Shown piece after piece: positions 36-55,455 of a DNA stretch of 64,000 bases. A program made the position numbers and the translations under genes. Numbering within the stretch: position 1 is the stretch's first letter; every line of letters begins with the position of its first letter. The DNA is taken from NCBI GenBank assembly GCA_000442015.1, contig KE561161.1:1-64000 (forward strand), given 5' to 3'. The notes beneath the pieces are model-generated. The model searched no databases and was not told where the DNA came from. It worked only from the letters and a program-made list of their open reading frames with translations. Source of the DNA: Rozella allomycis CSF55. Its lineage: Eukaryota.

Positions 36-1642
36 TTATTCGTCAATAATAGCTTCAGCGATTTCATAAAGCAAATTCTTCAGCCCAAGTATATCTTCTT
101 TTCGCATATTGGTATCAGATAAATGTCTAAACTCTTCCGCCAACCGCAAACTCTGTTCCACATTCTCAGGCGACACGAAATCCATGGCCAGTTTCACGCA
201 ATTATCATTGTTGCGCACCTGGTGCGGGAATCCAGCTGGGATAAACACTGCATCCCCAACCTCTTGCACAATCGTCAATGGAATTATACCATGCTTCACA
301 TACAGTGACTCTAAGTCCGCTTCGTGCAAATAGTACAGCTGTTCATGGATAGGATGCGAAACACGCTTCGAGGGGGACAGAAACCGGCTGATTGTTTCAG
401 AGTGCGCTGAGTGGAATATATGCCACGTTGCTGACCCGCCATTTTCGGCATGCAGTAATACATTGACAGCATCTGTTACGTCTACATGCAAGGCAGTAGT
501 TCCCTTGTTGCGTTTACACGAATACGCAGCGTACATTTTGGGACCTTATTTTGATTTAAATCATCACTTACCTAGGTCGGGCACAAGGTAGCTCTCAGGA
601 AGATACTTCATTAAATTGTAGGCTCCATCGTCAAATATATACTCTTTCAGTGGCATCATTTCGTAAAACAATTGCTTAAATGAATCTGTCAGTGGCCAAT
701 CCTATTTTCATGGTAAAGCCAATCTTACCGATATTTTCATTGCCGCTTTTGTCCTTGTTTGGCTAAAATCTTGGAAAAATTCGTTAAAAGTCATGTTTTT
801 GGGGCCAGGAGCTTTTAAATTGGGGCCGAGGACTCGCACTGTTTGATCTCCATATAGCGAACAGATTCTTTCTGGAGAAAATAGATGAGCGTCAAAATTT
901 AACTTTTTAATGATTATAACAAAATGTTTTTTCCAATACTTTTGGAAATCTTGCAATTTGGGAATGGCCATAAACTCTTTGCTTTCAATTTGAACTGTTT
1001 CACTGTTTTTAGGATCAAATAGTTTTAGTCTTTTGTAATTTCTGATTTGATTGCTAATCTTGTTGAAAATCTCTAAATTTCTTTGAATGATGAGAATAAA
1101 GTGATTTGATTTATGGAAAATTTGCTTTGTTGCGCAGGTTGTCTTTTGAACGTGAATATTTAGAAAGCATTTATGGCAAAGCTCCTTGCCGCAAAATACA
1201 CACATGTGAAACAAACAGAAAATTGATGATTTGCATTTATCGCACAATTGGCGGTTTCTATAATTCATGGGCCTGAAAAAATAGTTGGATTTGCTAGAAT
1301 TCATAATGCTTAAAAGGTCTTCTTCAATTACCTCTTTTAGATTGAAGAGTATGTAATCTAAACAATAATCTTTGACGTTTGTTGGTATTTGAGGTTTTGT
1401 GACATTCACAGATTCACCACTAGCGTTTAACACCTTTATTGATTGTTTAAAGTCCATAAATAGAAAAGAGTTTCCACTTCCAATTACTCTAAAGTTTCGA
1501 AATATACAACACTCAGGATGTGGGTTTACGAAAAGGCATGACATGCAATACATGTTTTTAGGTACTTGTTCAGCCAAAAAGCACGCATCTTGCTGAAGCT
1601 TAAAAGTATTTGAACGTTTTTTACAAAGCCGGTAGCTACCAT
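36..1642 (-). CDS. JmjC histone demethylase, KDM3/JHDM2-like (C-rich zinc finger + JmjC)
   Basis: PDLGPKMY, GTTALHVDVTDAVNVL, GDAVFIPAGFPHQVRN and DFVSPEN motifs; CDKC..CVFC..CHKC finger; 27-nt introns at 545-571 and 702-728. Start uncertain. Confidence 0.88.
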
Positions 1643-1730
1643 TCTTAAACTGGTTGTGGTATTGAGCGATTATACTAGCGGATAAACAATTACCTGTACC
1701 AGGAAAAACATCCGGGAAATTATCTATAAT

Positions 1731-2641
1731 TCATAAATTAAACAATTTTATACTATCAAAATTTTTTTCTTGGTTACTCGAATCATTCTTATTAACGTCA
1801 GTTGATGGACTATCTGTATCATCAAATTTGATGAATGCTCTTTCTAATTCTTGGATCTGGTTAGTTNTTCATTGTTATTAACGTCAGTTGATGGACTATC
1901 ATCAAATTTGATGAATGCTCTTTCTAATTCTTGGATCTGGTTAGTTATATCATTTTCCAATTCTCTAATTTCTCCAATTGCAGATTCCATTATTGGATAA
2001 CATGGTATTTCAATATAGAGTTCCTTATCTATAGGATTGTCCATGGGCCTTGAATTGTTCTCTGGCAAATCTGACAAGCTTGAATCAAGTGCAGTAGAAT
2101 TCAATTCTTCTTTTTGCGGAGAGTATGAATCATTGAATGGGTTTTTTGTGTTATCGCTATATATTTGCCCCTGTTCAATCATTACACTTTTACTAGGGAT
2201 TTCGTTAAATGTGTTGGATTCCAGAATTAAATTATTGATAAAATCAGAAGATGAATCCAGTCGGCTATTTAACATGGGGTCGTAATGACCATTCAGTTGT
2301 GACAAGGTCAAATCTTGAAAGGACGAGTTTGTTTTAAATGGACTTGAAATCTCTTGTGGAAATTGGTAAAGGCAAGAATAATTCTTATTGCAACAAGGAG
2401 AATGTAGGAAAGAGTAGTCAAATGTTATAGTTGGCATATTTGGATCCTGCAAAGATTCCTTGGCTTGATTTTTAACTCTCCCTCTTTTTCGTTTTTTAAC
2501 ATGTATCATTGTGCTGTTTCCGTCAGTATTGTTCAAATTCGAAACTATAGAAATATTTGTCTTATTCTCGTAAGCTCCAATTAACCACAGTAATTCCTCT
2601 TTTGTCATATTTTCGTAATCTGCCTTTGTTTCTTTTAGCAT
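1731..2641 (-). CDS. Hypothetical low-complexity protein with basic KKRKRGR motif
   Basis: 265-aa ORF interrupted by an N-flanked duplication at 1867; collapsing it leads to TGA at 1731. Could instead be a 5' part of the JmjC gene. Confidence 0.5.
1787..1946. repeat. Near-identical tandem duplication around N1867 (probable allelic artefact)
   Basis: About 75-80 nt repeated, with a 6-nt indel and a SNP. Confidence 0.85.
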
Positions 2642-2715
2642 TATAAGAGGAATTTTGTTTTGTGATTAAGTGGCGTTTGATTTTGTGCAAAGTTTTTTTT
2701 AAACTTTTGGCTTTT

Positions 2716-3909
2716 ATGGACGAATATAAAATTTTGGTCGTGTAATATCTTATAACACTTGTCATAAGATGTAAAAAATGGTTAAGGCATAAGCCAAAAC
2801 CAATTCAAAGCTTGCCCTTGGAAAACCTGGAAGAAGAAATGAAAAAGGAATTAAATATATGTAAATTCTACTTGTAACCTTACAGCAGATTTTGATTGGT
2901 TATCCGATTTGCAAAGTGTCACAATCAACAACGACATCATTCAGAGTATTACGAGGGCGATGGAAAAAGAATTACAACTCAAAGTACGCTTATAAAAGCT
3001 CTAAGAAAGAATATCATTTTCAAGTTGACTATATCTGGCGATTGTAGTGTTGAACAAGCAGCCACTAATATCAGTATTTGGAATTCATTCGGCATTTATT
3101 TGGAAAAGAAGGATATACTTTTACAAGTACTAGATGTGAAGAAAAAATGATTTAATGGGCAGCAAAATTTTGCTTATTCAGATATATTAGATCAAAAATC
3201 ATGTAGTTCTATAAATAGAGTTTTCAATTTACCGAATGGGTATTATATTTTATTTATTTATTCATAAGCCTTTAGTCTACTAACATCGAAAAGGTTTGAG
3301 ATTGATCGATTTGCAATGCTTTCGCCTTCTCCTTTGGAATATAAACCGGAAATGGTAGACAGTTTATATTTTTGCGATAGGCTTTCGATTTACTCCATAG
3401 CCCAGTAATGAAACGTAGTAGCACAAAAGGCTATGTGACAACCAACGAAAAACGTTTTCAAAGCAATGATAAAGTATGACAATGTTTTTTAAGAGAAAAG
3501 GTTATTTCACCTTCTCCGGGCGCTTATGTCATGAAATTACATTCAATTACACCGAAAATTGCATTTCATGGAACACCTGGTCCACGAAATGTTTTTCCAC
3601 TCAATAAGGTAAATCTATTTGGAGTGAAATAGAGGCACAATTAGATTATCCCGCCCCCAATATATATAATGTTCCTTCGGAAATGTCCAATGTAAGATCC
3701 TCCATAGAAAGAAGGCAAAGGGCAAAGGCCATTATAGAAAAAGATTTGGGAGTAAAAACACCTATTCACTCATAACAAAGGATATTCAAAGAATGCTCAT
3801 TGACGCACAGGTGAATGAAGACAAAGAAGCAATCAAGACTTTGCCTAGGATTTACTTTCCGCACAGAGTAAACAGAAGAATTTCACATTTAGCTCAATTC
3901 TATTTATAA
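2716..3909 (+). CDS. Multi-exon protein with PG-rich (SHIPPO/STPG-like) repeats, possibly axonemal
   Basis: Exons joined by short GT-AG introns (e.g. 2742-2768); SPSPGAY and YPAPNIYNVP motifs. Confidence 0.45.
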
Positions 3910-3933
3910 TTAAATTAATAAATGCATTTATAT

Positions 3934-5458
3934 TTAATTTTTGAATATATTCAGAACTAGTTTCGAAAGTAGGAAAATGTAGGAGAATATAAAGCAACAA
4001 CAGCAAAATATGTAGTTGACCATTACAAAGAGTTCGTTGTACCTTTTCGGGGGTTCAAGAATCGAAACTATCACAAAATATGATGCGATGAAGAAATATG
4101 TACACTTAAGTGAAATAGGAGTGAAGTTATTACAAACTGAATTATTTTCCATAAATTGCTTTCTCGTCCCCTCTGGCTTAACGATAGCCAAATGATCTGC
4201 AGTGAAAAGTACGCTATCAAGATTTCATCTTTTACCGCCAAAGGAAATAGACTATGCGACAAAATTTTATACAATACCTGAAGAAGCATACTTGAATAAA
4301 CCAAGAAACGAAGTTCGCTTCAATTGGGTATAAAAGAGTCACAGGCAAGAGTGGCAAAAGAATTGACTTTTCATGCACTTGAAATGATAGTAAAAAAAAT
4401 GAAATGGATGTTATGCACGTCGCGTACAACAAATTGCGCGATGTCGGTCGAATGAAAACCAAGAGGCAGCAAGGCACTGTAGCCAAAAATGTAAAAAAGG
4501 CACTAAAATTAAGATTTCTTGCAATATACCTTTTATAAAGGAGGCTGTCAATTGAATAAATGTATTTCACCTTTTGAATGAGAGAATAAATACACCATAT
4601 GTTTGCAACTTTATCTTCGAATATACCTCGATGCACTGGAAACAATCTTCTAAACATTTGAAGTAAAAGATCTTTTGAAGTAATGAAAGGATAAAGCGAA
4701 ATAACAAAAGTCATTGTTACAGCAAAGGCGAGTTTCACAAAAAGAAATCTATGTCTTCCTTTGTCTTTTAGTCCATTAAATTACCGTAGACTCAAACGCA
4801 ACAAGTAAAAAAATATTGGAAGCGCAAAATACAACGACATTTGCTTAAAACATAATGACAATGAAAAGCATATCGCGCCTTTCACGTAAGCCTGTTGAGA
4901 AAAAAAGTAAATGGAAAGTAACACAAATGATAGCATTACATTATTATACTGAAAATGACCATTATCAATTAAAATAAAACATGGTTGAATTGCAATGAGG
5001 AAAATAAAATATTTCAAGTTGCTAGAAGTTACGCTGGGATGAAGTTTTGCCGCTGTTAAAAATAGCACTGGCAAGAAAAAGAAAAGGTCTATCAAAATAA
5101 CAGTTGTTCTCATAAAAAATATTAATTCTTGATCTTCCTTTCCCCATGATGTTTGTAGAGCAAACCATGATGGATTGATATAGTTGCCTCTAAATATTGC
5201 GATAAAATACATGTATTACAAGGTACCAAATATGAAGCTAACATACCCACTCAAAGGTGGATAATCAAGACCCCAATGTTCTTGAGGATTTTCGGTACTA
5301 TTCAAATACCAATCTCTGGGGGGAATGTTTATTGAAATTTCCATCCAATGTCTTTGTGCCTCAAAATCTCCAAACAACGGTGGTTTCCCAAACCCTGAAA
5401 ATCCATGTAAACTTACTAAGCACCTTAAAAACAGCCCAAAGAGAAACGCAAGTAACAT
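3934..5458 (-). CDS. ALG6: Dolichyl-P-Glc alpha-1,3-glucosyltransferase ALG6
   Basis: GDFEAQRHWMEI, WGLDYPPL, IDNGHFQYN, RLFPVHRGIFEDKVANIWC, FQVHEKSILLP; 5 short introns. Confidence 0.95.
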
Positions 5459-9809: not shown

Positions 9810-10433
9810 ATGACAGGTAACATAGGAAACTGAATTTAATATGTAGTTAAAGTCTGTTCTAAAGTGTACAAGGTTCCTCGTCGTTGTTATGAAAAGGCCC
9901 GTCTTGATGCTGAGTTGAAACTTGCTGGTGAATATGGTTTAAGATGTAAACGTGAAATTTGGAGAGTTGGATTCATGCTTGGAAAGATCCGTAAAGCTGC
10001 TCGTGAATTGCTTACCCTTGAGGAAAAGGATCCCCGTCGTCTTTTCGAAGGAAACGCCCTTATTCGTCGTTTAATCCGTATTGGTGTTTTGGATGAAAGC
10101 AAAGCCAAACTTGATTATGTCCTTGGATTAAAAATCGAAGATTTCTTGAACAGACGCCTTCAAACACAAGTTTTCAAACTTGGCTTGGCTAAGAGTATTC
10201 ACCATGCTCGTGTCCTCATCCGCCAAAGGCACATTAGGTAAAATTTTTTGTTTTCTTTTATTTCCAGAGTCGGAAAACAATTAGTTGATATTCCTTCATT
10301 TGTTGTTCGTTTAGACAGTGCTAATCACATTGATTTCGCCTTGACTTCTCCATATGGTGGCGGACGTGCTGGACGTGTTAAGAGAAAGCGTGCTAAATCA
10401 TCTGGAAATGGAGCTGACGAAGATGAAGAATAA
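9810..10433 (+). CDS. RPS9: 40S ribosomal protein S9 (uS4)
   Basis: [39 protein letters not shown]; introns 9817-9846 and 10238-10267. Confidence 0.97.
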
Positions 10434-10672: not shown

Positions 10673-12523
10673 TTAATGATGTGATATTCCATTTTCTTTG
10701 CACCATCTTCTAATTAATTGTAATGACATGTCAGCTTGAGGGTGAGATGAATCTTCCAAAAGCTCCAGAATATCCTTAATATTGCTTGCATCTGCTAATC
10801 CATCATACACCTGCTTAAAGGCAGCCACCGCGCTAGCTATTTTCCCTTGAAAATGTTCAATGGACGGATCCAATGCTTCCAATGCTTTAAACGCACGACC
10901 ACTAATTAAAAAAAATTTTCTCTAGCAGAAGAAAAATTATGATTGTGTACCTTAAAACATTCATGACCAACTAACTGCAAAATTTGATAACTCTCACTTG
11001 AAGTTTCCATGGAACAGTATAGATCCCAGGCCTTCTCAGGTTTTTTATTCATTATATCTGATAGCAAAATAATAATAGTGTTACAACATTTTGAAAGATG
11101 ACTGATGTAAGTGTATTCGTTCTTGAATTTTTCATTCTGAATAAGAAGAAGTGCTTCTTCGGCTTCTTGATACTCATGCAATGCGGTCTTAGCTTGTGCA
11201 AAATTGTACAAAAACACATCGTCATTGGCAAAATATGTCTAATCTTTTACCACTAGTGTAATTACCTTAATTGAATTCAAATAAATCATCACATCCTCAA
11301 ATTGTTGTGTTAAAAAATAACAAGCAGCCATACTTTGGCGACCGGGTATTGTATCACATTCGTTAGCAGAGGTACCAACCAATTGAAAGTACTGTTGTGC
11401 TATTTTTAAGTGCTCTTTCGAATTTTGCTCGTGGCCCAACATTGCATTCACAATACCTTTCAGGATGTATTCCTGGGGAGTAGACGGATCAGTATCCTTT
11501 AATAGATCATAAGCCGATGATACATCATCGTTTTTCAAATAGTAAATTGCAAGGTTTATTCTTGCTTCAGGGATTACGTCAAGCAATTTAGGTAATACCT
11601 GAAGTGCACCCTGTCCACTTCTAAACACAACCTCAACAATTGGGATTCAATTTATTACTAAATTATGCCTAATTAATTCTTCAGTAAATATATCTGTTTC
11701 TCCTTTAAGTTTCTCCAAAAATGGTTCAAGCTCGTTTTCCGCTGCCTTGCCATTGTACAATTTATAGAAATTGCATGCCTTGAGATTTAATGCCATTGCA
11801 CTATCCGGATAAACCTGAAGATATCCATTAAGGACATCTTGAGATACGTCAAAGTATTCCAACCGATAATAGCACAATGCTACATAGTAATTGAGTGCCA
11901 AATATTCTCTATATTTATATATTTTGTATGTCACCTATTTTCAACTAATAGCTTCTTGTAAATATCAATCGCTTCTTGATAATGAGTTCTCAAAAAGTGG
12001 ACCGAAGCCAAAGTTAATTGATCTTCTAATACATCGTAAAGAAGTTGATGATATTTCACAAGATTCTCCTCATCCTGCTCTTTTTGTGCTATGTGAAGAA
12101 GCAATCTAATTTTTAATCTTGATTCTGACGCTTTTTCGATCATCAACTTACACTCCTTAGTCATACCAAGAAAAAAATAACAAATAGCAATGTAAATACT
12201 AATAGCAGATTGAAGTGTAGGTTCTTGTTGTAATTGTGAGTAAACCTTTAAAGCCTTTTCATATTTTCCAGCGTGAAACGCAGCATAACCATACCAAAGG
12301 AGAGACTCAATTGAAACCTCCTCATTCATCTGATTTTGAAACTTTTTTTCTATTTATACGATTTATTACGTCAATCAAGGTCATGGCACCAGTATAATCC
12401 CTTTTGGAAAGAAAGTCTTCCAGCGTGGGAATCTTTGGACCATTATTCTTATCCGCTTTAGAAAATTCCTTGGGTTTATTCCTTGATAATATCTGGTTTA
12501 AAAATAGTTATCAAATTTACCAT
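10673..12523 (-). CDS. IFT56: Intraflagellar transport protein 56 (TTC26/DYF-13)
   Basis: [37 protein letters not shown] motifs; 7 introns of 26-29 nt. Confidence 0.95.
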
Positions 12524-18840: not shown

Positions 18841-19500
<660 letters not shown>

Positions 19501-37132: not shown

Positions 37133-37174
37133 TTTTCAAATATATTCGTGAAAAAAATATTTATGAAAATGAAT

Positions 37175-38171: not shown

Positions 38172-38297
38172 TTCAAAGTGAAATATATTTTCCGCATATA
38201 TAAATAAAGTGAGCAGCTTGGATGATCTACTTGACCTTCGGTTTTACGTCATTGTTGCGTCCATTAAAGGAAATTTCATTACAAGGTTTGACCATTA

Positions 38298-39622: not shown

Positions 39623-39709
39623 TAAATATTTTTTTAGCTTTAATGAAAAACTCGTTGTAAATATGACTTGCTTAATTGAGCAAGAGGCTTGTTAAATTTT
39701 GTATTTGTA

Positions 39710-40324
39710 ATGACGAGACTTTTATTTCGATGCTCTAGCATATTATTTAAAAACCCTGTTGTATTCTTTGGTAAATACAATTTGTTGTTCAGACCTAGAT
39801 GTTGCCGCAAATCAGCAACCTATTGGGAGGATCAAGTTTGAGCTATTTAAAGATGTGGTCCCTAAAACCGCTGAAAATTTCAGAGCTCTGTGTACAGGAG
39901 AAAAAGGTAAACGGCGTTATTGCTGCATATAGGTTTCGGCTATAAATCAAGTACATTTCACCGAGTGATTAAGAATTTCATGTGCCAAGGAGGCGACTTT
40001 ACAAACCACAATGGCACTGGAGGAAAGAGTATTTATGGTGTGAAATTTGAAGACGAGAATTTTAAATTGAAGCACAGTGCCCCTGGAATACTTTCAATGG
40101 CCAATGCTGGTCCCAATACGAACGGATCCCAATTCTTTATTTGTACTGTGCCTTGTCCATGGTTAGACGGAAGACATGTGGTGTTTGGAAAAGTAGTTGA
40201 AGGAATGGACGTTGTAAAGAAGATTGAAAGCTACAGTTTGAATTCATCTGGCGCCACTTCGCAAAAAATAATGATTGAAGATTGTGGAGAGGTTAAAGAA
40301 GAATCATCAACCGAGAGTGCTTAA
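39710..40324 (+). CDS. Cyclophilin A-type PPIase, possible mitochondrial presequence
   Basis: [45 protein letters not shown]. Confidence 0.95.
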
Positions 40325-40419
40325 TGAAATATACATTGTTTAATAAATTACAATTTGCCTGGGAAAAATTATTAATATTTGTTAATTAAATATAGTTTGT
40401 TTTATAACTAACGTATTAA

Positions 40420-41022
40420 TTAATAATGATCATTGAATAGCTGCATTGTTTTCATTAAAAGCGGTCGAATTTCATTCAATTCGTGTCTAGTGATATTCGC
40501 TAACAGCAAAATTATGAATTGTATTAATTACTATAATTTCCTTGTTGGCGTGTAAATCTTGAAAACCTTTTAAAGTTTTTCTTTGTCGCACTTCTCGTAT
40601 CGCTTGAACCAACCGCTTCACAATTTCAACCGAGGGAATAGTGTCTGCACAAGTCTCTAGAAGCAATCTAGATATTTCAAAAAAGTGTTGATGTAAATTT
40701 GTATATTCTTCGGTGTTCTTTTCATTGTCCAGAATTCGCTGAAGATATTCTTGCAAAACGAGTTGAAAAAGTGAGTACCTATAGTTAAAAACTCTGGGGT
40801 GACTATATTTGCTTTCAAGGCTCGTTTCAGTTCAAGAGCAAACCAGAGTGGCACTTTGACGATGGTGTTTGCGGTAAAGGGGCCCAAAGTGACCTATTTT
40901 GGCATTAATTGTTTGGCTACTGAAAATAATTTTTTTCTTGGCGCGTTGAATAGCGGGAATATTGATATCATTTCATCCTTGGCAAAGAATTCCAGTTCTG
41001 GCGGCGAAAAAGTAGACGCCAT
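40420..41022 (-). CDS. PSF2: GINS subunit Psf2
   Basis: FSPPELEFFA, GPF..VPLWFAL, IREVRQRK, ELNEIRP; the last intron is GT-TG. Confidence 0.92.
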
Positions 41023-41060
41023 TTTTCCTGCGCCACTAGGGAAAGATTTAGTTTAAAGTG

Positions 41061-44000: not shown

Positions 44001-44682
44001 GCTTCAATTACAATTGATTACATTAACGAACAATTAGATTTGCTGAATTGGATTCTAGAGACTTGCACGAGTAAATTTAATCTTGTTTGAACATAAAGTG
44101 GAGTACAAGGAAGATGAACAAGTTTTAGAAAATTTATTTGAAATTGTTCACAACGATTTCAACAGACTAGCCAGCGGGTTGAGTGAATTATCTTGCACGC
44201 TATTCAACGATCTTCAAACAGACCAACTAATTTCTTCAATAACAGAATTCTACAAATCTTTAACAAACATCACAGTAATTCATCTCTTCAATTAATAAGC
44301 TGAAACACCACATCAAACAGAAACGAGCATTTGAGTCTTTCAAGAAAACAATTCATTTAATTTCAGAAAAATTATCTCCATTTGTTTACGATTTAATTCC
44401 ATTCGTGCAGAATGCTAAAAGAGCAAAAAAGAAGAAAAATGATCTGGAAAAAGTATTGGAAATTTACTAATCTAAAAATAGAAACAAGGGAAAGATTTGA
44501 AAATTATTCCTGCAATGGTTTATTCAATGGAACAGTTTGAAAGATTTTTATTGAAATTGGCTGAAAAGAATCAAGATCTGTTGGCTGGGGTTAGAAAGAG
44601 TACTGCAAGGGATTTCAAATTAACTCTACAAGGAATGGAGCCCCAAAAGAGGGTGAGAAAGGAAGGTGACGAACGAAGGTGA
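41061..44682 (+). CDS. FANCI: Fanconi anemia group I protein
   Basis: LEELPPLVYQML, HEFIRLEILNQI, LEPLGLLL, IPAMVYSMEQFERFLL, STARDFKL; about 10 introns. Confidence 0.85.
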
Positions 44683-44738
44683 AAGATTAAATAAAAAGGA
44701 TTAAAAAATATTAAGATTAAATGACTAAATATTCTCTT

Positions 44739-46290
44739 TTATTGGGATTGTAAGGGTGGAAGGGAATAATGATTCTTGTAAAATAAACCACACGAATTAC
44801 AAAGCGTCTTTCATCAATTTCAATTTCTTTTACCTTTTCACCATAAGGCCCAAATCTCAACAACGGCGTCTGCTCCAACGTACACAAACAATGCTTACAT
44901 CTCCAATTAACATCAAAATACGCTAAATGCATCAAACATATTAATTATTACCAGATTTAAATGGAATAAGATTACGAATATCACCGCGTTGAACGTACGG
45001 GCGTCTCTTGGCTGGATCTACTGAATACGTGCTCTCCTTTGATCTCAATTCTAGCAAATTCTCAAAAACCTTCTTGGGAAACGTTCTATTCGTCTTTGGT
45101 GGATCTCTCAACGCCCACAATTCAACCCGCCTTCCTCTATTCAACCGCCTCTTCCTTCTAGCATCCCTTTCTCTACTCTGCTCCAGCTTTTCCAAATCCT
45201 GGTCTGTTATCTCCATCAAAGAGGGCGAAAACAAATCTTGGATATCTTCATCCCTCAACGCATGATTCACAGGCAATAGAAATGCATCCTTCAACTCTAC
45301 ATCATCAACAGTCGCATTCTCTATATCAAAATTATATCCCGCTATCAACAAACTCTTCGTATGCCAGTATATTTGCTCTCTAATAGAATGCGCAATCGCT
45401 GTTGTAAACTCTCCATTCAGCCCCAATTCAGCCGACAAAATCAACGCAAATTCTTCAGGGTCAGTGGCTGGGTTGTAGTGATTAATGTCCCACTCAAATT
45501 GGTCAATTAAACTGACAGTCCCAATAGTTATATCCAGCTTTATTATTATTCGCAACTCATTCACACTCTCATGGTCAGGCTTCAAATAGTTGCTGAAATC
45601 CACAATCTGCTCTCTAATCGATTTGGATATCGGCGGCGAAAACAAACTGGTTGGTAAATCAAAATCTTGGCATATTATTTCGGCAAATACTTCAGGAGTT
45701 ACATTCTTCTCTTGAAGATGCCATGTAAATGTATCCCTATACTTTATTCCTTCAAACTCCAAATCTATCCTAATCGGTACTAGAATATCATGCGAATCCG
45801 ACGGAACATGCGAATAAACGATAGGCTTTTTGTAATCCCATCCAAATTCACTTCTCTGTCGCGAAAACTCTTGATGACTATCAGTCACTCTCTTTTTATT
45901 CCGCGCCAACTCTGTAAATTGTTCTTGGATTCTCTTTTTCTGTTCTTCACTCAATTTCAAATATTCCTTTTCTTTTTCAGTTAGTCCATCAGTCGAAACT
46001 ACATCCGCCTTAATTACCGGCATGCATCTTATATCTTCTACTTCTATTTGCACAGTCTTCATTCCTTCCAGCTTTGGCAATATATCTTGCGCTCTAAGAA
46101 AAATAGAATTCACAGGAAGCACTTGGTTATTCTGCAAAACTAATTCCTGTTCTTCGTTGGACGGCGTCTTGGAATACAACATACTGTATTTATTCAAAAA
46201 TGTCCCCTGATCACTTTGAAATAGTGCAGCAACTTCTGAAGCCAAGACATACTCGCTATCGTGGAAAATAAATCTCTTGATTCGCACCAT
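44739..46290 (-). CDS. SNF5: SNF5/SMARCB1 homolog with N-terminal winged-helix-like domain and C-terminal GATA-type finger
   Basis: LVPIRIDLE..RDTFTW, DQFEWDI, LGLNGEFTTAIAHSIREQ; spliced tail CKHC-x20-CNSC. Confidence 0.9.
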
Positions 46291-46342
46291 GAAATTTGCC
46301 AAACTGGACTAGGAAAATTCAGCCAGGGTCTCCGTATTTGTA

Positions 46343-46875
46343 ATGGTAATAACACAACCAGCTCTATATTTAGCCATTAGCAGAAGAACAAGTGAGTGAC
46401 TATAAAGAAGCCTTTTGTTTATTTGATCGTTCTGGACAAGGTCACATTGAAGCTCATCAACTTGGCGATCTTTTGAGATCACTCGGATACAACCCCACTC
46501 AAGCTCAAGTCAAGGAAATGATAAACAAAATTAATAATCAACCACTATCCTTTGACAGCTTTCTACGATTTGTAGAAGGAGATTTGCAAACCTTTCAGTT
46601 TCCTAATCCAACCCTAGAAGAATTGGTTCAAGGTAAACTTATTTTAAAACATATATAGGATTTCAAGTTTTTGACAAGGAAGGGAATGGTTTTATTTCAG
46701 TTGGCGAATTAAGATACGGTAATTAGAATCAAGCCAAATATATTTAGTGCTAACTTCATTGGGTGAAAAATTAACTGATGAAGAAGTGGATGAAATCCTT
46801 AAACAAACAGACGTTGTTGGGAAAGAAGGTTTTGTTCAATATGAGGAGTTTATAAAGAAGATATTAAATGGATAA
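46343..46875 (+). CDS. Myosin essential light chain (Cdc4/Mlc1-like EF-hand)
   Basis: YKEAFCLFD, LGDLLRSLGYNPT, GFQVFDKEGNG, ELRYVLTSLGEKL. Confidence 0.9.
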
Positions 46876-46970
46876 ATAAATCGAAAATTCTATTTAATTG
46901 ATTTTAAAAATAAAATATAGACAACAGTTACTGCAATCATAGACTGTTCATTGTGCAGGGGTTGAAAGAA

Positions 46971-47817
46971 ATGGATCGTTTGATGAACAAAGTCGTTTTT
47001 ATTACTGGCGCTTCTTCAGGTATCGGACAAGCATGTGCTCATTTATTTGCATCTTTCGGATCGAAATTAGTAAATTAACGTTTACGGAGTTTTAGATTAT
47101 CACGGCAAGGAGAGAAGACAAACTTAATGAATTAAAACTAAGCTTAATTCAAAAATATCCCGCTGCTGAAATCCAAGTTGCAAGAATGGACGTATCAAAA
47201 CCTGATAGTGTCTTACAGCTCTTTAAAAGCAATGACTGGGTGATTGACGTCTTGATTAATAACGCTGGTTTAGCACTAGGCACAGAACATGTAAGTGACA
47301 TCAATTTTGAAGATGTGGACACAGTCATGGATACCAACGTGAAAGGTGTGGATTAAAGATAGCATATACTTAAGGGCTACTTTATGTTACTAATCAAGCT
47401 CTTCAAAATATGAAAAAGCATGACAGAGGACATATCATTAACATCGGCTCAGTGGCGGGCACACAAGCATATCCAGGTGGATCGATTTATTGTGCATCCA
47501 AACACGCCGTTGATTCAATTACTAAATCGTTGCGTATGGAACTTGTTGATACGCAAATACGAGTAACAAGCATATCACCTGGTAGATCGTTAAAGTCTAT
47601 TTAAAAAGGACTCGTTGAAACCGATTTTTCCAATGTAAGGTTTAAAGGAGATTCAGATAAAGCCAAAAATGTATATAAAGGTATAAAAGCATTAAATGCT
47701 GAAGATGTTGCTGAGGCTGTTATATTCGCTGCTTCACGCCCATCGCACGTCCAAGTTGCAGATATATTGATATTTCCAACCAATCAAGCATCAGCATATC
47801 ATGTGCATAGACAATAA
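46971..47817 (+). CDS. SDR oxidoreductase (YdfG/YMR226C-like)
   Basis: ITGASSGIG, NNAGLALG, YCASK, PGLVETDFSNVRF. Confidence 0.92.
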
Positions 47818-47867
47818 ATTATTTGAATACCTTTGAATATTTTACATTTCGTTCAGCCACTGGCGTT

Positions 47868-49305
47868 ATGACACGTCAATCAATAATCCGATTTGCTAAA
47901 CTTGCAGTTTTAATAGCAAGCGTGTTATCTCTTTATTTTTCAATTTCATGCATATATAGGAAGGAAGATTTTTATGCTGCTTCTGTCTCCTTCAAACGGA
48001 ATAAGTTAGCTTTCACGGTAAAGAATATGGATTCACATTAACTGTGCCTAATACTGACAATAGAAGGAGTATTATTTGGTTTTATGTATTCTCTTATCAA
48101 GATAATATTTGGATCTATAAGGTTAGTTGAAGAGGAGGTAAAAGTATACCTTGGAAATGATAGCACATATTTGAAGAGCTATCTGCTAGCATATTTCAGG
48201 GATTATTTGCGTTGACGATGTTTAGAAATTCTGTGAATAGTAGCGATTTCAATATTTTACTATGCGGTTTGTTTTGCTGGTCATGCTTCCATTGGATATA
48301 TCAACATAGATCTGACCTAATTGTCCAGGTACCGAATCTAGGCGTTACCTACCATGTAAAAATGGCTTCGGCAACTCTTTTGATAACATTTATCGATTTA
48401 AGTATCTTATTGTATTGTTTTGATCATTTGACAGAACATGGTGTTGATCTACACTTTTATTTTCTGTATAACATTTCTATTTTATTTGTTGGATTCATGT
48501 TTAATTTGACAAAATACGTTTTAAATCTTCTTGAGATGTTCAAACCAAATGAGTGGCATGACAAATCGCTTTACTTGTTCTATGCTGAGTTGGTGCAAGA
48601 TTTACTTAAAGTGATTGTTCTATGCTCCTACTTTTATATGGTAACCATCTCGTTCGGCCTTCCTCTCTATTTGATTCGTGATTGCATTTTCAGTTTTGCC
48701 AGTTTGATAAAAAAGATCAAACAATTGCTTAATTTCCATAAAACAATGAGAGATCTTCAAAATAGGTATTGATAATAATTCTATATTTTGAAAGGTACCC
48801 TGACGCAACCCCCGATGAATTGGCATCAGGCGACCGGGTTTGTATTATTTGCAGGGAAAACATGGACACAGCTAAAAGGTTATCCTGTGGCCATTTATTT
48901 CATTTTAATTGCTTAAGAAGATGGATTGAAAGACACAACGTTTGTCCCACATGCAGACAGCCTTTAGACTCTAGACCCGCTAATACAAATACTAATGCCA
49001 ACGAAAATAACGATATTCCAAATGCACCTAATAATACAAATGAAGAATTATTAAGAGCATTGCAAGAACACGAGAGAATCAGAGAGGTCCTAGACAACTT
49101 AAGAAATCGCCCCATTGGTGAAAATAACCAACGCGAAAGAATTCAAGCAAATTTAAACAATTTGATCGACGAAGAAGAACAAACTCGGCGTTATCTTGTT
49201 GCCCAAATTCAATACTTGAAATTCCTGAGTAACAGAGCGAATTCCATGATTCAAGACTATCATAGAATACAAGATGAGATTTTAAATAACCAAAATAATC
49301 AATAA
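47868..49305 (+). CDS. HRD1: ERAD E3 ligase Hrd1/synoviolin-like
   Basis: Multi-TM N-terminus, FGLPLYLIRD, YPDAT..DRVCIICRE..CGHLFH..C..W..CPTCR; the first intron is GT-TG. Confidence 0.88.
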
Positions 49306-49390
49306 ATTTCATCCAACTTTTGATCACTTATTTTAAAATTAAGAAAAGTAATTAATGAATTTACTTCTGCCTGACCTCTTGTGGCTAAGC

Positions 49391-51851
49391 ATGACTCAAG
49401 AAAAACCGATCTGGTTTGCACCAAAAAACGAAAAAGAACCAAGTGGTCTTCAAGTGAAAAATTCATTCAAGAATGAAAAAGTATGAAAAACATTTCTAGC
49501 TTATAGGTTCCTTTTGTTCCTCAACAGGGAAAATTGATAAAGTGGTATTCCTGTGGCCCAACTGTTTATGATGCAGCACATATGGGGCATGCTAGGACTT
49601 ATATTACCTTTGACATTATAAGAAGAATTTTAGAAGACTATTTTGGATATGATATATATTATGTTATGAATATAACAGATATTGATGACAAGGTTGGAAT
49701 GATTTGAATTTAACAAAGATTATTATAAGAGCACGTCAAAAATATTTGTTTGATGAATATTTAAAGAAAAACGTTACTTTGGAGGAATTAAAATCGGATA
49801 TCATGGAAGCCGCTAAATTTGTTGCAGAAAAGTATCTGAATTTAAAAGATTTAAAACAAAATGAATTAATTGAAAAAATATCTGCTATTATTTCCGAAGA
49901 TCCTAAAGTTTTGATGCATAAAAAGTCAATTCTTGCAGGCCTAACATCAAAAAGTCAAACCCCTGTCGAAATAGCTGAAGCCGCTAAAGACATTTTAACT
50001 TACTGGCTAGATGACAAAATGGGTGCATCTGTCACTGACATTAAAATATTTAGAGATCTTTCTGTCCACTGGGAAAAAGAATTCATGAAAGACATGGAAT
50101 TGTTAAATGTAAATAACTTGTTTAAAGTAGAAAAGGTTTTGCCATCTGATGTGTTAACACGTGTGAGTGAATATGTACCTGAAATTGTCGATTTTGTTCA
50201 AAAAGTGATTGACCATGGATTTGCGTAATTGATTTAATAATTTTCAATGAGTTACGAAGCTGATGGATCTGTTTATTTTGATACTCAAGCCTTTGATAAA
50301 GATCCCAACCATTCTTACTGCAAACTGAAGCCTAGTGCCAAAGGCAACGTAAAATTGATGGAGGAAGGTGAAGGATCATTGTCTTCACACACCTCGAGTA
50401 AAAAATCTCCAGCTGATTTCGCCCTTTGGAAAAAATCCAAGCCTGGCGAACCAGCATGGAACTCTCCTTGGAGCCAGGGTAGGCCAGGTTGGCATGTTGA
50501 ATGCTCAGCAATGGCTGGTGATGTTCTCGGCTCATGCCTGGACATTCATTCCGGTGGTATAGATTTATGCTTTCCCCATCATGATAACGAACTTGCTCAA
50601 TCTGAAGTAATTTGAATATGCCTAATTGACCAGGGTTTCTTTAACAATAAGCAATGGGTGAACTATTTCCTTCATGCGGGTCATTTGCACATTGAGGGAC
50701 AAAAAATGTCTAAATCACTAAAAAATTTTATTACTATAAGGGAAGCTTTGGCAAAATACAGCAGTCGCCAGATTAGACTGTTGTTCTTGCTTCATAGCTG
50801 GTCTGATGTTTTGGATTATAAAGAAAGCTCAATGAAAGAGGCTATTAATGTTGAGCAAACATTATTTAATTTCTTCTCTAATGTTCAAACAATCATTAGA
50901 GAGGTTTCTCTGTTGGATATTTCACAAAACAACGATCATGACTTTAGAAAGAAAGAAAAAGATTTGGTTGAATTGTAAAATATGATTATTTAATTAAAAG
51001 TTTATTGGATAGACAAAGTGACATTCACGAAGCGCTTTGTGACTCATTTAATACACCACTTGTTATGAGAGCGTTACTTGACATTATTTCTCAATGCAAT
51101 GTTTACATGAAAGAAACTCCAAAGCCTTCTGTTTATCCATTAAAAAAAAGTGCTGATTTTGTTACAAGAATTTGCAAAGTAAACAATAAAGTTAAACTAA
51201 AAAAAGATATTTGGGNTTAAATTAAAAAAGATATTTGGAGTGATTGAGACAAGAGGAACTATTGGATTTCCTGTCCAAACGTCTTCTTCCTCTCTTGAAG
51301 AAAGTCTAATTCCTTATCTTAATACTTTGGCTGATTATCGCGATAAGATTAGAGACTTGGCAATCAATAATGCAGATTCCAAACAATACTTGATATTGAG
51401 CGATAAATTAAGAGACGAAGATCTTTTAAATCTTGGAGTTCTTTTGGAAGACAGAGATGGCTCAACCAAAGTAAAATTGGTGGACAAGGATTTTGTCGTC
51501 AAAATGAGGCAAGAGAAAAAGCAAGTAGACAATTTTATCTTTTCATGATTTAGCGTGATGAAGAAAGAGAGAGAAATAAAGCTCTGGTGGCCGCTGAAAA
51601 AGAAAGAAAAAAGCAAGAAAAAATTGAAAAGGCAAAAATAAGTCCTAATGAAATGTTTAAAATTGGTGATTATAAAGACTTATTTTCAAAATTCGATGAA
51701 ACGGTAAAATTATTCACTTTTTTGTTAGAAGGGATTTCCAACCCATGACAACAAGGGTGAAGAACTAGCAAAATCAAAAACGAAAAAATTGAGAAAAGAA
51801 TTCGACGCGCAATTAAAACTTCATGATCAATACATAAATGGCACCCTTTAA
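49391..51851 (+). CDS. CARS1: Cysteinyl-tRNA synthetase
   Basis: [38 protein letters not shown]; 9 introns. Confidence 0.97.
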
Positions 51852-51879
51852 TTTCGCACTTACAATAAATGCACTTTAT

Positions 51880-52787
51880 TTATGTTAATGTTGCTGTAGC
51901 ACCTATCCTTGCTTTCACTTGTGATGGCCCAGCATGGCTACTTAGTTGGAAGCTTCTCTTTCTCAATGTTTCCACCAATCCTCTTTCTGTGATTATTAAT
52001 AATTGATAAATAGCACATGTTGAAAGACACACAGTCAATCCGTGTTGACTAAGCAAACGATGAAAAATGGCCAATATCATGACAATGTTCACTATCAATA
52101 TCATAAACGAGCGAATGACAGAACTTTTGATTACAGCAACTTGAATCGGCGCTCCCACGTTCGATAGGTATTGTTTCGCATCATTCAGGTATTGTCGTAA
52201 TGATTGAATTGTCACAGTGGTTACAATGATATCAACAAGCATATCAATAACTACAAATGTGGTAAGAACATCAACATCCCACCCATACATACAAACACCA
52301 TCCATCATCTTGGCACCAGGAAAGACCAAATTCATAACACTGACAATTCCCCTAACGGCCACCGTAAAATAAGAAAACCACATAACATATTTGTTTTTAA
52401 AGCTTAAAAGTATCGCCCGGTANCGACGATTCCTCTAACCGCCACCGTAAAATAGGAAAACCACATAACATATTTGTTTTTAAAGCTTAAAAGTATCGCC
52501 CGGTAAAGGAGCAGATAGTCTATTCCCATCATCCCCATGCTTTCCAAGAAATTGGCTATTCTAACCGTTGTATCGCAATCAAATGGATATACGCCTTGAA
52601 ACACAACTATGACTAATAGAGCCCATGAAGCAAACGAAAATGAAGAAACTACTTTGGTGTATGTATCAAGTGTCCTTGATTTTTGAGCAAGAACAGTGAA
52701 CAAAGAATATACAAACAGAATTAAACTTACAGTCAACAAAAACATAGCTGACATCAAGATTTGCACAACAGAAATCGGATATGTCAT
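51880..52787 (-). CDS. Orphan 7TM-like membrane protein
   Basis: About 7 hydrophobic segments after collapsing the duplication at N52423; intronless. Confidence 0.65.
52344..52505. repeat. Tandem duplication around N52423 (probable allelic artefact)
   Basis: About 80-nt copies with several SNPs. Confidence 0.85.
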
Positions 52788-52835
52788 GGTTGTAGCGAGG
52801 TCGGAGAATAAAAATTATAAATAGGTGGAAAAGAT

Positions 52836-52907
52836 TTCCGCATCGGGGAATCGAACCCCGGCCTTTGCGGTGAAAGCGCAAAATCCTAGCCACTAGACCA
52901 ATGCGGA
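52836..52907 (-). tRNA. tRNA-Glu(UUC)
   Basis: TCCGCAT/ATGCGGA acceptor stem, TTGCG-CTTTCAC-CGCAA anticodon arm, GGTTCGATTCC T-arm. Confidence 0.95.
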
Positions 52908-52909
52908 TG

Positions 52910-54032
52910 TTATGTGTTATTTATTAAATATTTCAATCTTTGAAGGGCGTAAGAGTAATAGTCAAAAGTCATTCCTTTTTGTTTGTTAGCCAGCAAAAAA
53001 CCCCATATGCACCAAAATAGATGAGACAAAGGCACAAAACTCATAACTATCAAATCGAATTGTTCAAGTTGCACGTTTTCTTTTTCTTCAAAGTATGCCC
53101 GGTAAAAGTTGTATCGTTCTTCAAGAGAAGGAAACAAATTTTGATGGAGAATGTGGGGATTTTCACTGTCATAGTTGGCCATCCATTCACAAAAGTGGTT
53201 TGCTATATCATATTCCCTTTGTGCAATTAACGAATATTCAAAGTCGATTAGCATCAAGTTTTCATCCTCATCACAAAGAATGTTCCCATATTGAAGCTAT
53301 TCGTTAAATATAAATTAGCCATTACATCACCATGAATAAGACAGGTTTGTTCATCTTCATAGGAGTTTTCCAGTTTCATCTTTAGCTCTTTCAATTTATT
53401 ATCAATGATTTCTATGTGATTTTGTTCAAGATTCTGATTTGAAAGTAGTAGCGTGTACCATTTGTCCAGTTGACTCCAGATTTGAGTGCTTTTCTCCTTT
53501 ACCTCAACACAATGTAATATGCGCAACTGCTTTGCTATTTTCTTTGAAATACCTGGCTTGCGCATATTTGATGGCGTCAAAGGTGCTACTCCTTGAATGT
53601 ACTCCTCCACACGACCGAAATCAAAAGCTGCCAGAATGCGGGGCATCAACCCTTTTGCAGAAATTTTAGAGGCCAATCTCACTTCTCGACTTCTAGATAT
53701 TAAATGAGTGGTGCCGCTGCCGTAAAATCTAATTAACAAGGGTGAACTATTGCTGAAATGGCAAACAAATACAATGTTGCTCAATGCTGCATCTAGACGC
53801 TCCACAGAGATGATTCCAGCTGACTGATACTTTGGAACATGATTAATTATATTTTGAATTTCATGAATTGTTGGTATATGTTCGATACCTGGACTTATCT
53901 TACATTGACATCACTTTGTTACTCCATAATAATCGGAGTGGTTATATCTTTCTCAGTCACATCATATACATCGGCATTGGCTATAGCATCGGTTAATTTT
54001 TCTTTGCTATCATAAAATAATGGTATAGTCAT
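52910..54032 (-). CDS. Choline/ethanolamine kinase
   Basis: LLIRFYG, GRVEEYI, HGDLQYGNIL, IDFEYS, DIANHFCEW, SHLFWCIW. Confidence 0.93.
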
Positions 54033-54142
54033 GTTTTGACGATTGAAGCTTATTTTTGAAGCCTAATTAATGAGACTCGCTTTTGATTGAATCAAGACAT
54101 GTAATGGTTATCTTTATTAAAAAGTCAAGATAATAATTTATT

Positions 54143-54295
54143 TAGACTTTCCGTTGGTCTAGTGGCTAACCATGATGCTTACGGACGTCTAGGTGCATGG
54201 TTCGATCCCCATCCATGTTTCCGAATTTTCTGGGGTTTTCAGGTTGAGGCAAGGTTCGACTCCTTGGTGATTTTGACGATGTGGATCCCTCATCC
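54143..54295 (+). ncRNA. tRNA-Glu-related Pol III-type structured element (ncRNA, SINE or tRNA relic)
   Basis: A box TGGTCTAGTGG, two B boxes (54199, 54253), several hairpins, no complete cloverleaf. Confidence 0.5.
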
Positions 54296-54511
54296 TTAAT
54301 AAATACGATTATTCAAATAACTGTATATATTTAAAATATAAAAAAAAAAGATTGTTCTTTAAAACTTCCAGCGGAAAGGAATGAACCATGAGGACATCTT
54401 GACATTGAAATTCACGTCAAAAATAAACTCGCAGAAACGCAAAAAAATAATATTTATGTGATTCATCTATAATTAATAATGTTATAATAACATAAATGTA
54501 CCCCTTCTTAT

Positions 54512-55455
54512 TTATTGACTAGGCTGTATATTCGATTTCGGTTTTCTGGGAATAGGTGGTGCGTATTGATATCCCATTGATGGATTTGCCATTGATGAAT
54601 TTGCATTTATAGCCATATTTGGAAACTGCATCGAATTAGGATGAATGTTGCCTATGGCAGGATTACTGACAAACCCTTGATTACTAGGAATATATTGTTG
54701 ATATGGGATGTGCTGATTCTGCAACTGTGAAGGGGGTGGTTGAGCTGTATAGGGTTGAATCGGTAAGTTTAAGGTAGTTTGATTTTCTAAAGGCATATCT
54801 TTCAAAGGAGCAGATTCAGCTGCCGTTAAATTTTTATCGATAACTTCTGTTTGTTCGATTTCAGGAATAAATTTTTCTATTCATATTGCACAAATTACAT
54901 ACTTATANCAGAACTTACATACTTATATCTTCGGAGCTTAATGGGTGGATGGTATTTCCTAGATTTTTCGGTGGTTCTTTTTCCTCTTGTCCTGACAAAG
55001 ATTGAATGTTTGATAACTCACGAATGAAGTAATCAGCCAAAAATCGTATTTTTTCTAATGAGGGAATTAGGGTGTTAATTGATTGTTGGTCTTGCAAGTC
55101 AGATTTACTTGAATCTGTTGAGTAAATATATAATGTTTACCTTTCACGATTATATTTAATTTGTTCATAGTTAACAGTGCATGCTGTACGTCGTTGTCGT
55201 CTGTCAATAGAATTAAATCGCCATCACTAAAAAAGAGGGCTCAGATATTACCTTCATCTATATAATTTAACTGGTAATTTTCTGGATTATCAGATAAATC
55301 TCTTTTGAATAAACGTTGCATAATGAAGCAAAGTTCATTGTAGGTCTATTTTGTCTGAAATTAGTGGTTACCAAATCCTTATTACATAAAGAGACACGCC
55401 TAAATGTGGAGCCAAATCGTGCTTTGATAGTTACCATACAATCTCCTCCCTGCAT
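54512..55455 (-). CDS. TFG: TFG-like protein (PB1 + coiled coil + P/Q-rich tail)
   Basis: Spliced IKARFGSTFRRVSLCNKDLTYNELCFIMQRLF...YIDEDGDLI matches the TFG PB1 domain as I recall it; one GT-TG intron. Confidence 0.8.

Follow-up and report, generated by a model that had tools for sequence, protein, structure and literature searches.

Fixed-length mini-introns have been described in Mikrocytos (16–17 nucleotides (nt)), in heterotrich ciliates (15–16 nt) and in the Bigelowiella nucleomorph (18–21 nt), according to a passage of PMC10245619, and a passage of PMC2483917 reports no branch-point signature for Paramecium, the Bigelowiella natans nucleomorph and dicyemids. For Dicyema and myxobolids, weakly conserved A residues located farther from the AG in longer introns were described and taken by the authors as the branch site (PMC13644364, 2026); the exceptions that this paper lists are ciliates, Microsporidia and Dicyemida, and Rozella is absent from it. 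Here, the introns encoded in 64,000 nt of the nuclear genome of Rozella allomycis CSF55 (contig KE561161.1, positions 1 to 64,000; this whole stretch is referred to as the window) were analysed, and nearly all of them were found to be 26–30 nt long, with an A preferred at position 23 counted from the donor (A23). Rozella allomycis, a member of the Cryptomycota sister to the Microsporidia, is a flagellated, fungus-like parasite of water moulds. A literature search found no paper naming Rozella among organisms with introns below 30 nt, although the 2013 genome paper (James et al.) may mention them.

The introns found in the window, their lengths, the AGs that they skip and the A at position 23 point, with a probability of about 0.6, to a spliceosome that would pick its branch adenosine mainly by distance from the donor and then use the nearest AG that follows it by 3 nt or more.

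Three lines of evidence free of any length assumption were used: read-through alignments, in which a gene was translated in one frame with X at stops and aligned to a homologue, spliced protein-to-DNA alignment with a purpose-written aligner (constant intron penalty, no length term, only GT and AG required), and the mapping of public protein models back to the DNA. They yielded 29 checked GT-AG introns (28 computed, to which that of RPS9 was added by hand), with three in Rac, seven in IFT56, one in RPS9, four in calreticulin, eight in CysRS and six in FANCI. Their lengths were 25 nt (one), 26 nt (eight), 27 nt (eleven), 28 nt (six), 29 nt (two) and 30 nt (one), with a mode of 27 nt. Removal of these introns, which all have the GT and AG ends of U2-type spliceosomal introns, restored an uninterrupted conserved protein relative to human Rac1, Chlamydomonas IFT56, the 40S protein S9, human FANCI, 40 calreticulins and 21 CysRS.

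The read-through translation of Rac differed from human Rac1 (residues 1–192) by exactly three 9-residue inserts, corresponding to three 27-nt introns, and that of RPS9 differed from chain 7oya_J2 of the 40S ribosomal protein S9 by one 10-residue insert, corresponding to a 30-nt intron. The spliced aligner placed introns of 28, 27 and 27 nt in the calreticulin gene with each of the 40 homologues and one of 26 nt with 39 of them, and CysRS introns of 26, 26, 27, 27, 27, 26, 29 and 28 nt were each obtained with 19–21 of the 21 sequences, besides one ambiguous 52-nt intron. A search with the IFT56-like exon returned a single protein, P0001, of 585 residues and 100% identity (named 'TPR-like protein [Rozella allomycis CSF55]' or 'Intraflagellar transport protein 56' in the source), which mapped exactly onto the DNA with introns of 28, 28, 26, 27, 27 and 29 nt; five of its six junctions were gapless against chain 8bd7_E of Chlamydomonas IFT56. 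The calreticulin exon search returned P0122, a Rozella allomycis CSF55 protein 100% identical to the window product. The public FANCI model P0242 mapped with introns of 28, 26, 28, 26, 26, 63, 31, 28, 25 and 29 nt, five of the junctions being gapless against human FANCI and the 25-nt one being moderately supported. Most of these introns are already present in public annotation. The individual introns are as follows, in CysRS and calreticulin with one further intron each that was kept outside the 29, and with one probable intron at the end.

18876–18902, plus strand: Rac intron 1, 27 nt, ends AAG; a 9-residue insert relative to human Rac1 between G12 and A13.
18975–19001, plus strand: Rac intron 2, 27 nt, ends AAG, CAG at 21 nt skipped; a 9-residue insert between V and F of PTVFDNYS.
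19183–19209, plus strand: Rac intron 3, 27 nt, ends AAG; a 9-residue insert relative to human Rac1.
12493–12520, minus strand: IFT56 intron 1, 28 nt, ends CAG; in the P0001 map, its junction lying outside the 8bd7_E alignment and supported by the annotation and the reading frame.
12342–12369, minus strand: IFT56 intron 2, 28 nt, ends AAG, TAG at 20 nt skipped and out of frame; in P0001, with the junction TLID/FQNQ gapless against Chlamydomonas IFT56.
11909–11934, minus strand: IFT56 intron 3, 26 nt, donor GTG, ends TAG; P0001 map and 8bd7_E alignment.
11632–11658, minus strand: IFT56 intron 4, 27 nt, ends GAG; P0001 map, with the junction IRHNL/VVFR identical in Chlamydomonas.
11239–11265, minus strand: IFT56 intron 5, 27 nt, skips AGs at 12 and 22 nt and ends TAG; P0001 map, with the junction SIK/TYF gapless against 8bd7_E.
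11058–11084, minus strand: unannotated IFT56 intron, 27 nt, GTAAC...TCAG, no in-frame stop; a 9-residue insert of P0001 relative to 8bd7_E, the removal of which gives KCY/IMN as in Chlamydomonas.
10922–10950, minus strand: IFT56 intron 7, 29 nt, ends TAG; P0001 map and 8bd7_E alignment.
10238–10267, plus strand: RPS9 intron, 30 nt, T-rich, ends CAG; a 10-residue insert relative to 7oya_J2.
38444–38471, plus strand: calreticulin intron 1, 28 nt, ends AAG, CAG at 20 nt skipped and out of frame; 40 of 40 homologues, also in P0122.
38717–38743, plus strand: calreticulin intron 2, 27 nt, ends CAG, AAG at 22 nt skipped; 40 of 40 homologues.
38884–38909, plus strand: calreticulin intron 3, 26 nt, GT...TG as assembled, A at position 23; 20 of 20 homologues with any end dinucleotide allowed, outside the 29.
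39048–39073, plus strand: calreticulin intron 4, 26 nt, ends AAG; 39 of 40 homologues.
39173–39199, plus strand: calreticulin intron 5, 27 nt, ends TAG; 40 of 40 homologues.
41239–41266, plus strand: FANCI intron, 28 nt, ends CAG; P0242 map, gapless against human FANCI.
41706–41731, plus strand: FANCI intron, 26 nt, ends AAG, AAG at 21 nt skipped; P0242 map, gapless against human FANCI.
41980–42005, plus strand: FANCI intron, 26 nt, donor GTG, ends AAG; P0242 map, gapless against human FANCI.
42120–42145, plus strand: FANCI intron, 26 nt, ends AAG; P0242 map, gapless against human FANCI.
44071–44098, plus strand: FANCI intron, 28 nt, ends AAG; P0242 map, gapless against human FANCI.
44275–44299, plus strand: FANCI intron, 25 nt, ends AAG, the sole case below 26 nt; the frame allows 25 or 46 nt only, P0242 has 25, and the retained LKHHIKQ aligns with human RYYLQVC (moderate support).
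49481–49506, plus strand: CysRS intron 1, 26 nt, ends TAG, TAG at 19 nt skipped; 20 of 21 homologues.
49693–49718, plus strand: CysRS intron 2, 26 nt, donor GTT, ends AAG; 21 of 21 homologues.
50109–50135, plus strand: CysRS intron 3, 27 nt, lacks an in-frame stop, skips AGs at 19 and 22 nt and ends AAG; 21 of 21 homologues.
50225–50251, plus strand: CysRS intron 4, 27 nt, ends GAG; 21 of 21 homologues.
50607–50633, plus strand: CysRS intron 5, 27 nt, ends CAG; 19 of 21 homologues.
50975–51000, plus strand: CysRS intron 6, 26 nt, ends AAG; 20 of 21 homologues.
51179–51230, plus strand: CysRS intron 7, 52 nt (20 of 21 homologues), or 28 nt (51179–51206, in frame) with 8 extra codons; not counted.
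51525–51553, plus strand: CysRS intron 8, 29 nt, ends TAG; 20 of 21 homologues.
51704–51731, plus strand: CysRS intron 9, 28 nt, ends AAG, TAG at 25 nt skipped; 19 of 21 homologues, the two forms differing by one residue (weak discrimination).
27167–27193, minus strand: probable intron of an MGRN1-like RING protein, 27 nt, ends GAG; the sole GTA-donor candidate bridging open frames in 27100–27250 of the minus strand.

These data bear out the first-pass annotation of the window, made by a model from the letters and open reading frames, in its statements that nearly all introns measure 26–30 nt (28 of the 29 checked, with one of 25 nt) and that all three Rac introns measure 27 nt. The six introns which it had singled out by position (18975–19001, 12342–12369, 11632–11658, 38444–38471, 50225–50251 and 27167–27193) all run from GT to AG; homology confirmed five of them, whereas the MGRN1-like one is forced by the reading frame only. 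That intron, of phase 2, is flanked by 100 and 82 open codons, no homologue alignment spans its junction, and the adjoining exon matches the RING finger family zf-C3HC4_3 (Pfam).

The density of introns was high, with three in 576 nt of coding sequence in Rac, seven in 1728 nt in IFT56 and five in 1188 nt in calreticulin, and about four ordinary GT-AG spliceosomal introns per kb of coding sequence for the window genes overall, shrunk to 26–29 nt with 25 and 30 nt as extremes; a passage of PMC8476143 gives 2.5 introns per kb for the species. The donor was GTA in 26 of the 29 checked introns. Behind it the relative entropy was 0.34 bits at position 4 and at most 0.02 at positions 5–10.

A wider set of 85 introns was compiled from the 29 checked and 56 probable ones, the latter picked for a GTA donor and a length of 26–30 nt, with a stop required if the length was divisible by three; the probable introns were drawn on only for properties unaffected by this choice. 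A gene finder based on codon usage recovered 12 of the 24 introns then known (two Rac reference coordinates being off by 1–2 nt); it was rejected as an intron caller, as it chained through antisense and intergenic DNA and invented introns of 10–19 nt, and was kept only for locating exons. One RNA run compared with 34001–54000 gave 10 short spurious pieces and no joints, the run not covering the stretch.

The length distribution was also evaluated by a model-free count of GT..XY pairs of 10–45 nt joining two open frames with a blocked read-through, the other 15 end dinucleotides serving as the background for AG. An excess of GT..AG was detected only at 26 (+18), 27 (+22), 28 (+14), 29 (+15) and 30 nt (+4). 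No excess was observed at 25 nt or below (25 nt, −4; 24 nt, +5), and nothing notable elsewhere within 10–45 nt. When a GTA donor and an AT-rich interior were demanded, 80 candidates of 26–30 nt were found against 11–20 expected from 8 control dinucleotides, with no excess at 12–25 nt (35 vs. 34–55) or at 31–60 nt (132 vs. 87–146). The intron-length distribution has a floor and a ceiling near 30 nt.

Frequent acceptors less than 25 nt from the donor, which the first-pass annotation had considered fatal to a distance rule, were not found; none of the 29 checked introns was shorter than 25 nt and one measured 25 nt. Because of this one, moderately supported intron (44275–44299), the floor is not absolute. 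Other introns of up to 25 nt were sought among 25 GTA-donor candidates of 18–25 nt, and all of these except 44275–44299 were discarded, having an in-frame alternative of 26–31 nt, a doubtful strand or a high G+C content. The ceiling shows that a floor combined with the use of the next AG is not the whole story, since random AT-rich sequence would then give a long tail.

The same count bears on whether the short 'introns' could be frameshift or stop errors of a draft assembly, or habits of gene predictors. The assembly does contain eight single N in the window, and public models carry errors (a wrong 104-nt intron and a missed intron). However, GT opens every checked insert and AG closes all but one, the residues concerned are in each case exactly those absent from human, Chlamydomonas, animal and fungal homologues, and random errors would not produce a peak at 26–30 nt specific to GT..AG against 15 control dinucleotides, so that such an origin is barely credible.

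The 3' ends of the introns showed little beyond the AG itself. Among the checked introns the last three bases were AAG in 15, TAG in 6, CAG in 6 and GAG in 2; 17 of 29 thus ended in AAG or GAG, the endings that had been described as frequent from the sequence alone. In the wider set the numbers were 42 for AAG, 27 for TAG, 9 for CAG and 7 for GAG. Position −3 carried about 0.05 bits relative to intron composition, with no preference for YAG, and no pyrimidine tract was seen in the intron sets aligned at the 3' end, positions −8 to −4 being 45% A and 8% C.

Ten AGs located 19–25 nt from the donor were skipped in nine of the checked introns, and six of the ten were TAG or CAG. Eight were ruled out by the reading frame, one by Rac conservation and one, the CysRS TAG at 25 nt, weakly. 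The Rac CAG at 21 nt, if used, would add 2 residues within the invariant PTVFDNYS. All three examples of neglected YAG acceptors given in the first-pass annotation held, the calreticulin CAG and the IFT56 TAG, both at 20 nt, by the frame and the Rac CAG by conservation. The first AG at 26 nt or beyond was the one used in 28 of the 29 checked introns and in 82 of the 85 checked and probable ones, and AG was abundant at 24–25 nt from the donor (13 events in 85 introns).

The A at position 23 was present in 24 of the 28 computed checked introns (binomial p = 8e-8 vs. 0.36) and in 25 of 29 including RPS9. The wider set had it in 64 of 85 (p = 2e-13), the background of A in intron interiors being 36%. 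By length class, it was found in 8 of 8 checked introns of 26 nt, 10 of 11 of 27 nt, 5 of 6 of 28 nt and 0 of 2 of 29 nt. Aligned at the donor, the 85 introns had A in 30 (35%) at position 22, in 75% at position 23, in 52% at position 24 and in 55% at position 25; aligned at the acceptor, A amounted to 41–53% from −3 to −7 with no step or sharp peak. A23 is anchored to the 5' end and not to the 3' end. In the RPS9 intron, which is a run of T, the lone A between positions 7 and 28 falls at position 23, and the GT-TG intron of calreticulin, ending at position 26, also carries A23.

These observations allow the question of whether distance could act on the acceptor itself, an AG being accepted only about 26–30 nt from the 5' splice site, while A23 would only open an A-rich 3' region and the branch would be located elsewhere. 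Use of the first AG at 26 nt or beyond in nearly all checked introns, the lack of a branch motif, the richness in A of all three positions 23–25 and the intron that ends at position 26 with TG and not AG are what such a direct measurement would give. Against it, the frequency of A jumps at a single position, the lone A23 of RPS9 sits in a T run and not in an A-rich context, and no other position is conserved. All spliceosomes known so far require a branch adenosine upstream of the 3' site, which also counts against a direct donor-to-acceptor measurement, and we regard it as improbable. A direct effect of donor distance on the 3' site, with a floor near 26 nt, was the central proposal of the first-pass annotation. 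Its floor and skipped AGs were retained here, whereas the ceiling near 30 nt, A23 and the 25-nt intron fall outside it.

A conventional branch motif was looked for in the 85 introns and not found: CTRAY occurred in 7 and CTAA in 10, at scattered positions, and YTRAY in 36, likewise scattered. TAA was most often placed from position 21 (13 of 85), as was TTAA from position 20 (10 of 85). The flanks of A23 were near background, with T at position 21 in 37 of 85 introns and a relative entropy of at most 0.02 bits at positions 17–22. The lack of a branch-point or pyrimidine consensus noted in the first-pass annotation was thus confirmed as far as motifs and tract are concerned, but it had missed the position-specific A.

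The placements of TAA and TTAA would also suit a spliceosome with no measuring at all, in which a degenerate yUnAy-like branch sequence is matched to U2 and scanning proceeds to the first AG, the constant position of the A being a by-product of shrinkage by deletion bias. In some introns a good CTAAC or TTAAC has its second A at position 23 (Rac intron 3 and 55646–55672), and deletion bias against a threshold is argued for Mikrocytos in a passage of PMC10245619. The background frequencies around A23 and the scattering of YTRAY, present in fewer than half of the introns, speak against this explanation, as does the finding that in introns of 28–30 nt the A stays at positions 23–24 and does not follow the 3' end. 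It is possible but, on balance, unlikely.

The reading preferred here is that the choice of the branch adenosine would depend chiefly on how far it lies from the 5' splice site, with about 22 nt placing it at position 23 and sometimes 24. A23 is read as the branch adenosine because it is a single A tied to the 5' end that always lies shortly before the acceptor, and a choice made mostly by distance is suggested because nothing else marks it. The 3' site would then be the first AG at least 3 nt downstream of A23, at 26–30 nt from the donor. The only sequence signals left are a 5' GTA, the A at position 23 and the AG. AGs at 25 nt or less would go unused, being located 5' of the branch A or overlapping it. 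A measurement acting on the branch site would in this way account for the 26-nt floor, for the lack of influence of the base preceding AG, for the passing over of good YAGs 19–25 nt from the donor and for the abundance of AG at 24–25 nt, and the choice of acceptor would only resemble a measurement from donor to acceptor. A branch element whose spacing explains the choice of acceptor had been named in the first-pass annotation as an argument against its own proposal, and A23, found in 25 of the 29 checked introns, may be such an element in part.

Scanning alone does not account for the ceiling near 30 nt, which is probably due to deletion bias working against a minimum workable size. The narrow range of lengths would most likely be an evolutionary end state between such a bias and the smallest size that can be spliced; the same argument, of deletion bias against a functional minimum, is made for Mikrocytos in a passage of PMC10245619.

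A stricter form of the same idea would make the spliceosome accept any A about 23 nt from the donor as the branch, with no pairing motif, and cut 3–7 nt further on even at a non-AG end, as in the calreticulin intron at 38884–38909. This form is quite doubtful. If true, it would be a case of geometry-driven splicing in the fungal lineage, independent of ciliates, dicyemids and myxozoans.

Several observations weigh against a branch adenosine chosen by distance. Four of the 29 checked introns lack A23 and two of these four also lack an A at position 24, and the probable intron 30826–30853, likewise without A23, contains a TTAAC whose A is at position 18. A23 lies only 2–7 nt from the 3' G. Such a spacing is far closer than that between branch and 3' site in yeast or mammals. 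At least two probable introns skip an AG at 26–27 nt. One of the introns concerned, in ALG6 (4755–4784, 30 nt, probable), skips an AG at 26 nt, has a rival 27-nt form (4765–4791) with a GTC donor and lies where the alignment with yeast ALG6 is gappy. About 18% of the 56 probable introns are possibly false and the length statistics on them are partly circular, and everything rests on 64 kb of one genome.

Cryptic introns within coding sequence were also counted. Decoys with GTA and the first AG at 26–30 nt numbered 22 in the 14.5 kb of coding sequence, where codon shuffling gave 38.6 ± 5.8, but this showed no avoidance specific to the 26–30-nt window, as control windows of 16–20 and 36–40 nt were lowered about equally and GTA itself was depleted. 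On the sense strand of the coding sequence (nine genes, 14.5 kb) GTA was found 98 times, compared with 126 ± 8 after codon shuffling and 150 on the antisense strand. Such a depletion could be an avoidance of donor-like triplets or simply codon-pair bias. Many introns start with GTAATGA, GTAATTGA or GTAATTTGA (e.g., 38444, 38717, 39173, 50225 and 50607, plus strand), which puts TAA and TGA stops into two reading frames over the initial 9 bases; this may reflect selection for stops in retained introns.

Comparison with the public gene models revealed errors of two kinds. The IFT56 model P0001 reads through the 27-nt intron at 11058–11084 (minus strand) and contains 9 extra residues absent from Chlamydomonas IFT56; stop-free introns with a length divisible by three may be systematically missed in the annotation of this genome. 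The calreticulin model P0122 removes 104 nt (38884–38987, plus strand) and thereby deletes 26 conserved residues. The 26 residues downstream of 38884–38909 align without gaps to mollusc calreticulin, with 13 of 26 identical in the alignment. The GT...TG reading of calreticulin intron 3 results either from a wrong base at 38908 or from genuine use of a 3' site other than AG. The public models thus miss stop-free 27-nt introns and invent long ones to reach an AG, and since both occur in the window, a length-aware re-annotation would change protein sequences.

In FANCI, two overlapping candidates at 42599–42653 (plus strand) join the same two exons, one of 31 nt (42599–42629, annotated, no A23) and one of 28 nt (42626–42653, with A23), and they yield different peptides of 8–9 residues. 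P0242 also annotates a stop-free intron of 63 nt (42414–42476, plus strand) within an open frame; the Pfam FANCI_S2 match spans this frame, with 97 residues against 91 profile positions, and the intron is probably spurious. CysRS intron 7 contains an N at 51216 and a repeated 24-nt unit, and resembles an assembly or allele problem.

The window has a G+C content of 34% and contains three tRNA genes and many open frames abutting one another. The Rac gene ends with CIML followed by TAA, that is with a CAAX end, which indicates that TAA serves as a stop codon in Rozella. Eight isolated N are present, at 1867, 37429, 37553, 51216, 52423, 54908, 60725 and 61014, and single-base calls in the assembly are therefore not fully reliable. 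Pfam searches with 30 translations of open reading frames or exons left half without a family and were used for gene names only. Rozella proteins in the databases were 95% (CysRS, P0002; 49391–51341, plus strand) and 98% (FANCI, P0242; 41121–44682, plus strand) identical to the window products, and this difference of a few percent in amino acids suggests that they represent another allele, strain or assembly of this species. The homologue of FANCI (Fanconi anaemia group I) at 40800–44700 (plus strand) matches Pfam FANCI_S1, S2 and S4 and human FANCI with E = 1e-39, which is notable for a reduced parasite genome. Its 472-residue exon searched against protein representatives returned only Rozella's own protein, and its exons searched singly against solved structures found nothing useful.

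Taken together with the described systems, Rozella joins the known class of tiny introns represented by Paramecium, dicyemids and myxobolids, and both the class and a 5'-anchored A have precedents. The features of the class found here are a mode below 30 nt with a spread of a few bases, a high density, splice sites limited to GT(A) and AG, no pyrimidine tract and an A at a fixed distance from the donor. The introns of Dicyema and myxobolids are closest, with a median of 27 bp in Henneguya and Dicyema sp. and mostly below 30 bp, a GTa 5' site, an AG 3' site and no pyrimidine tract, in parasites with compact genomes (PMC13644364 and a passage of PMC6543705). Their A is likewise at a fixed distance from the donor, being farther from AG in longer introns (PMC13644364). 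The text of that paper describes '2 to 3 weakly conserved A', whereas Rozella, compared on this wording, has one sharp position at +23 in 86% of the checked introns. Dicyema and myxobolids are animals, whereas Rozella is of the fungal lineage, so that the origin would be independent.

With Paramecium and Nyctotherus, whose introns are of about 25 bp, Rozella shares the narrow range below 30 bp, the high intron density and the GT(A) 5' site, as described in passages of PMC5014332 and PMC2483917. According to the same passages, introns with a length divisible by three are under-represented in Paramecium and rich in stops, whereas 12 of the 29 checked in Rozella are of such a length (eleven of 27 nt and one of 30 nt) and at least two of these are stop-free, in a small sample. 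The introns of Mikrocytos, heterotrichs and the nucleomorph are similarly confined to lengths within a few bases of one another, close to the minimum for splicing, but are 6–10 nt shorter, and those of Mikrocytos are highly conserved in sequence, as far as a passage of PMC10245619 describes them.

The microsporidian Encephalitozoon cuniculi also has short GT-AG introns (22–76 nt), according to passages of PMC3629993 and PMC2483917. In these passages Microsporidia combine a low number of introns with strict motifs at the 5' site and the branch (CTAAYTT), whereas Rozella has many introns and nearly no motif; a strict branch motif of the microsporidian type (CTAAYTT or WCTRAY) near the 3' AG was not found among the 85 introns. 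Rozella therefore falls in the class opposite to Microsporidia in the scheme of Irimia and Roy. The question of how a spliceosome finds introns with almost no sequence signal has been raised anew for animals by PMC13644364, which calls for further studies. The sharp A at +23 gives a concrete prediction on the location of the branch. With Rozella, such introns would have one more, independent, lineage within the fungal radiation, adjoining the Microsporidia with their opposite route of few introns and strict motifs, and the contrast between these sisters is a natural comparison for establishing which changes of the spliceosome go with which route.

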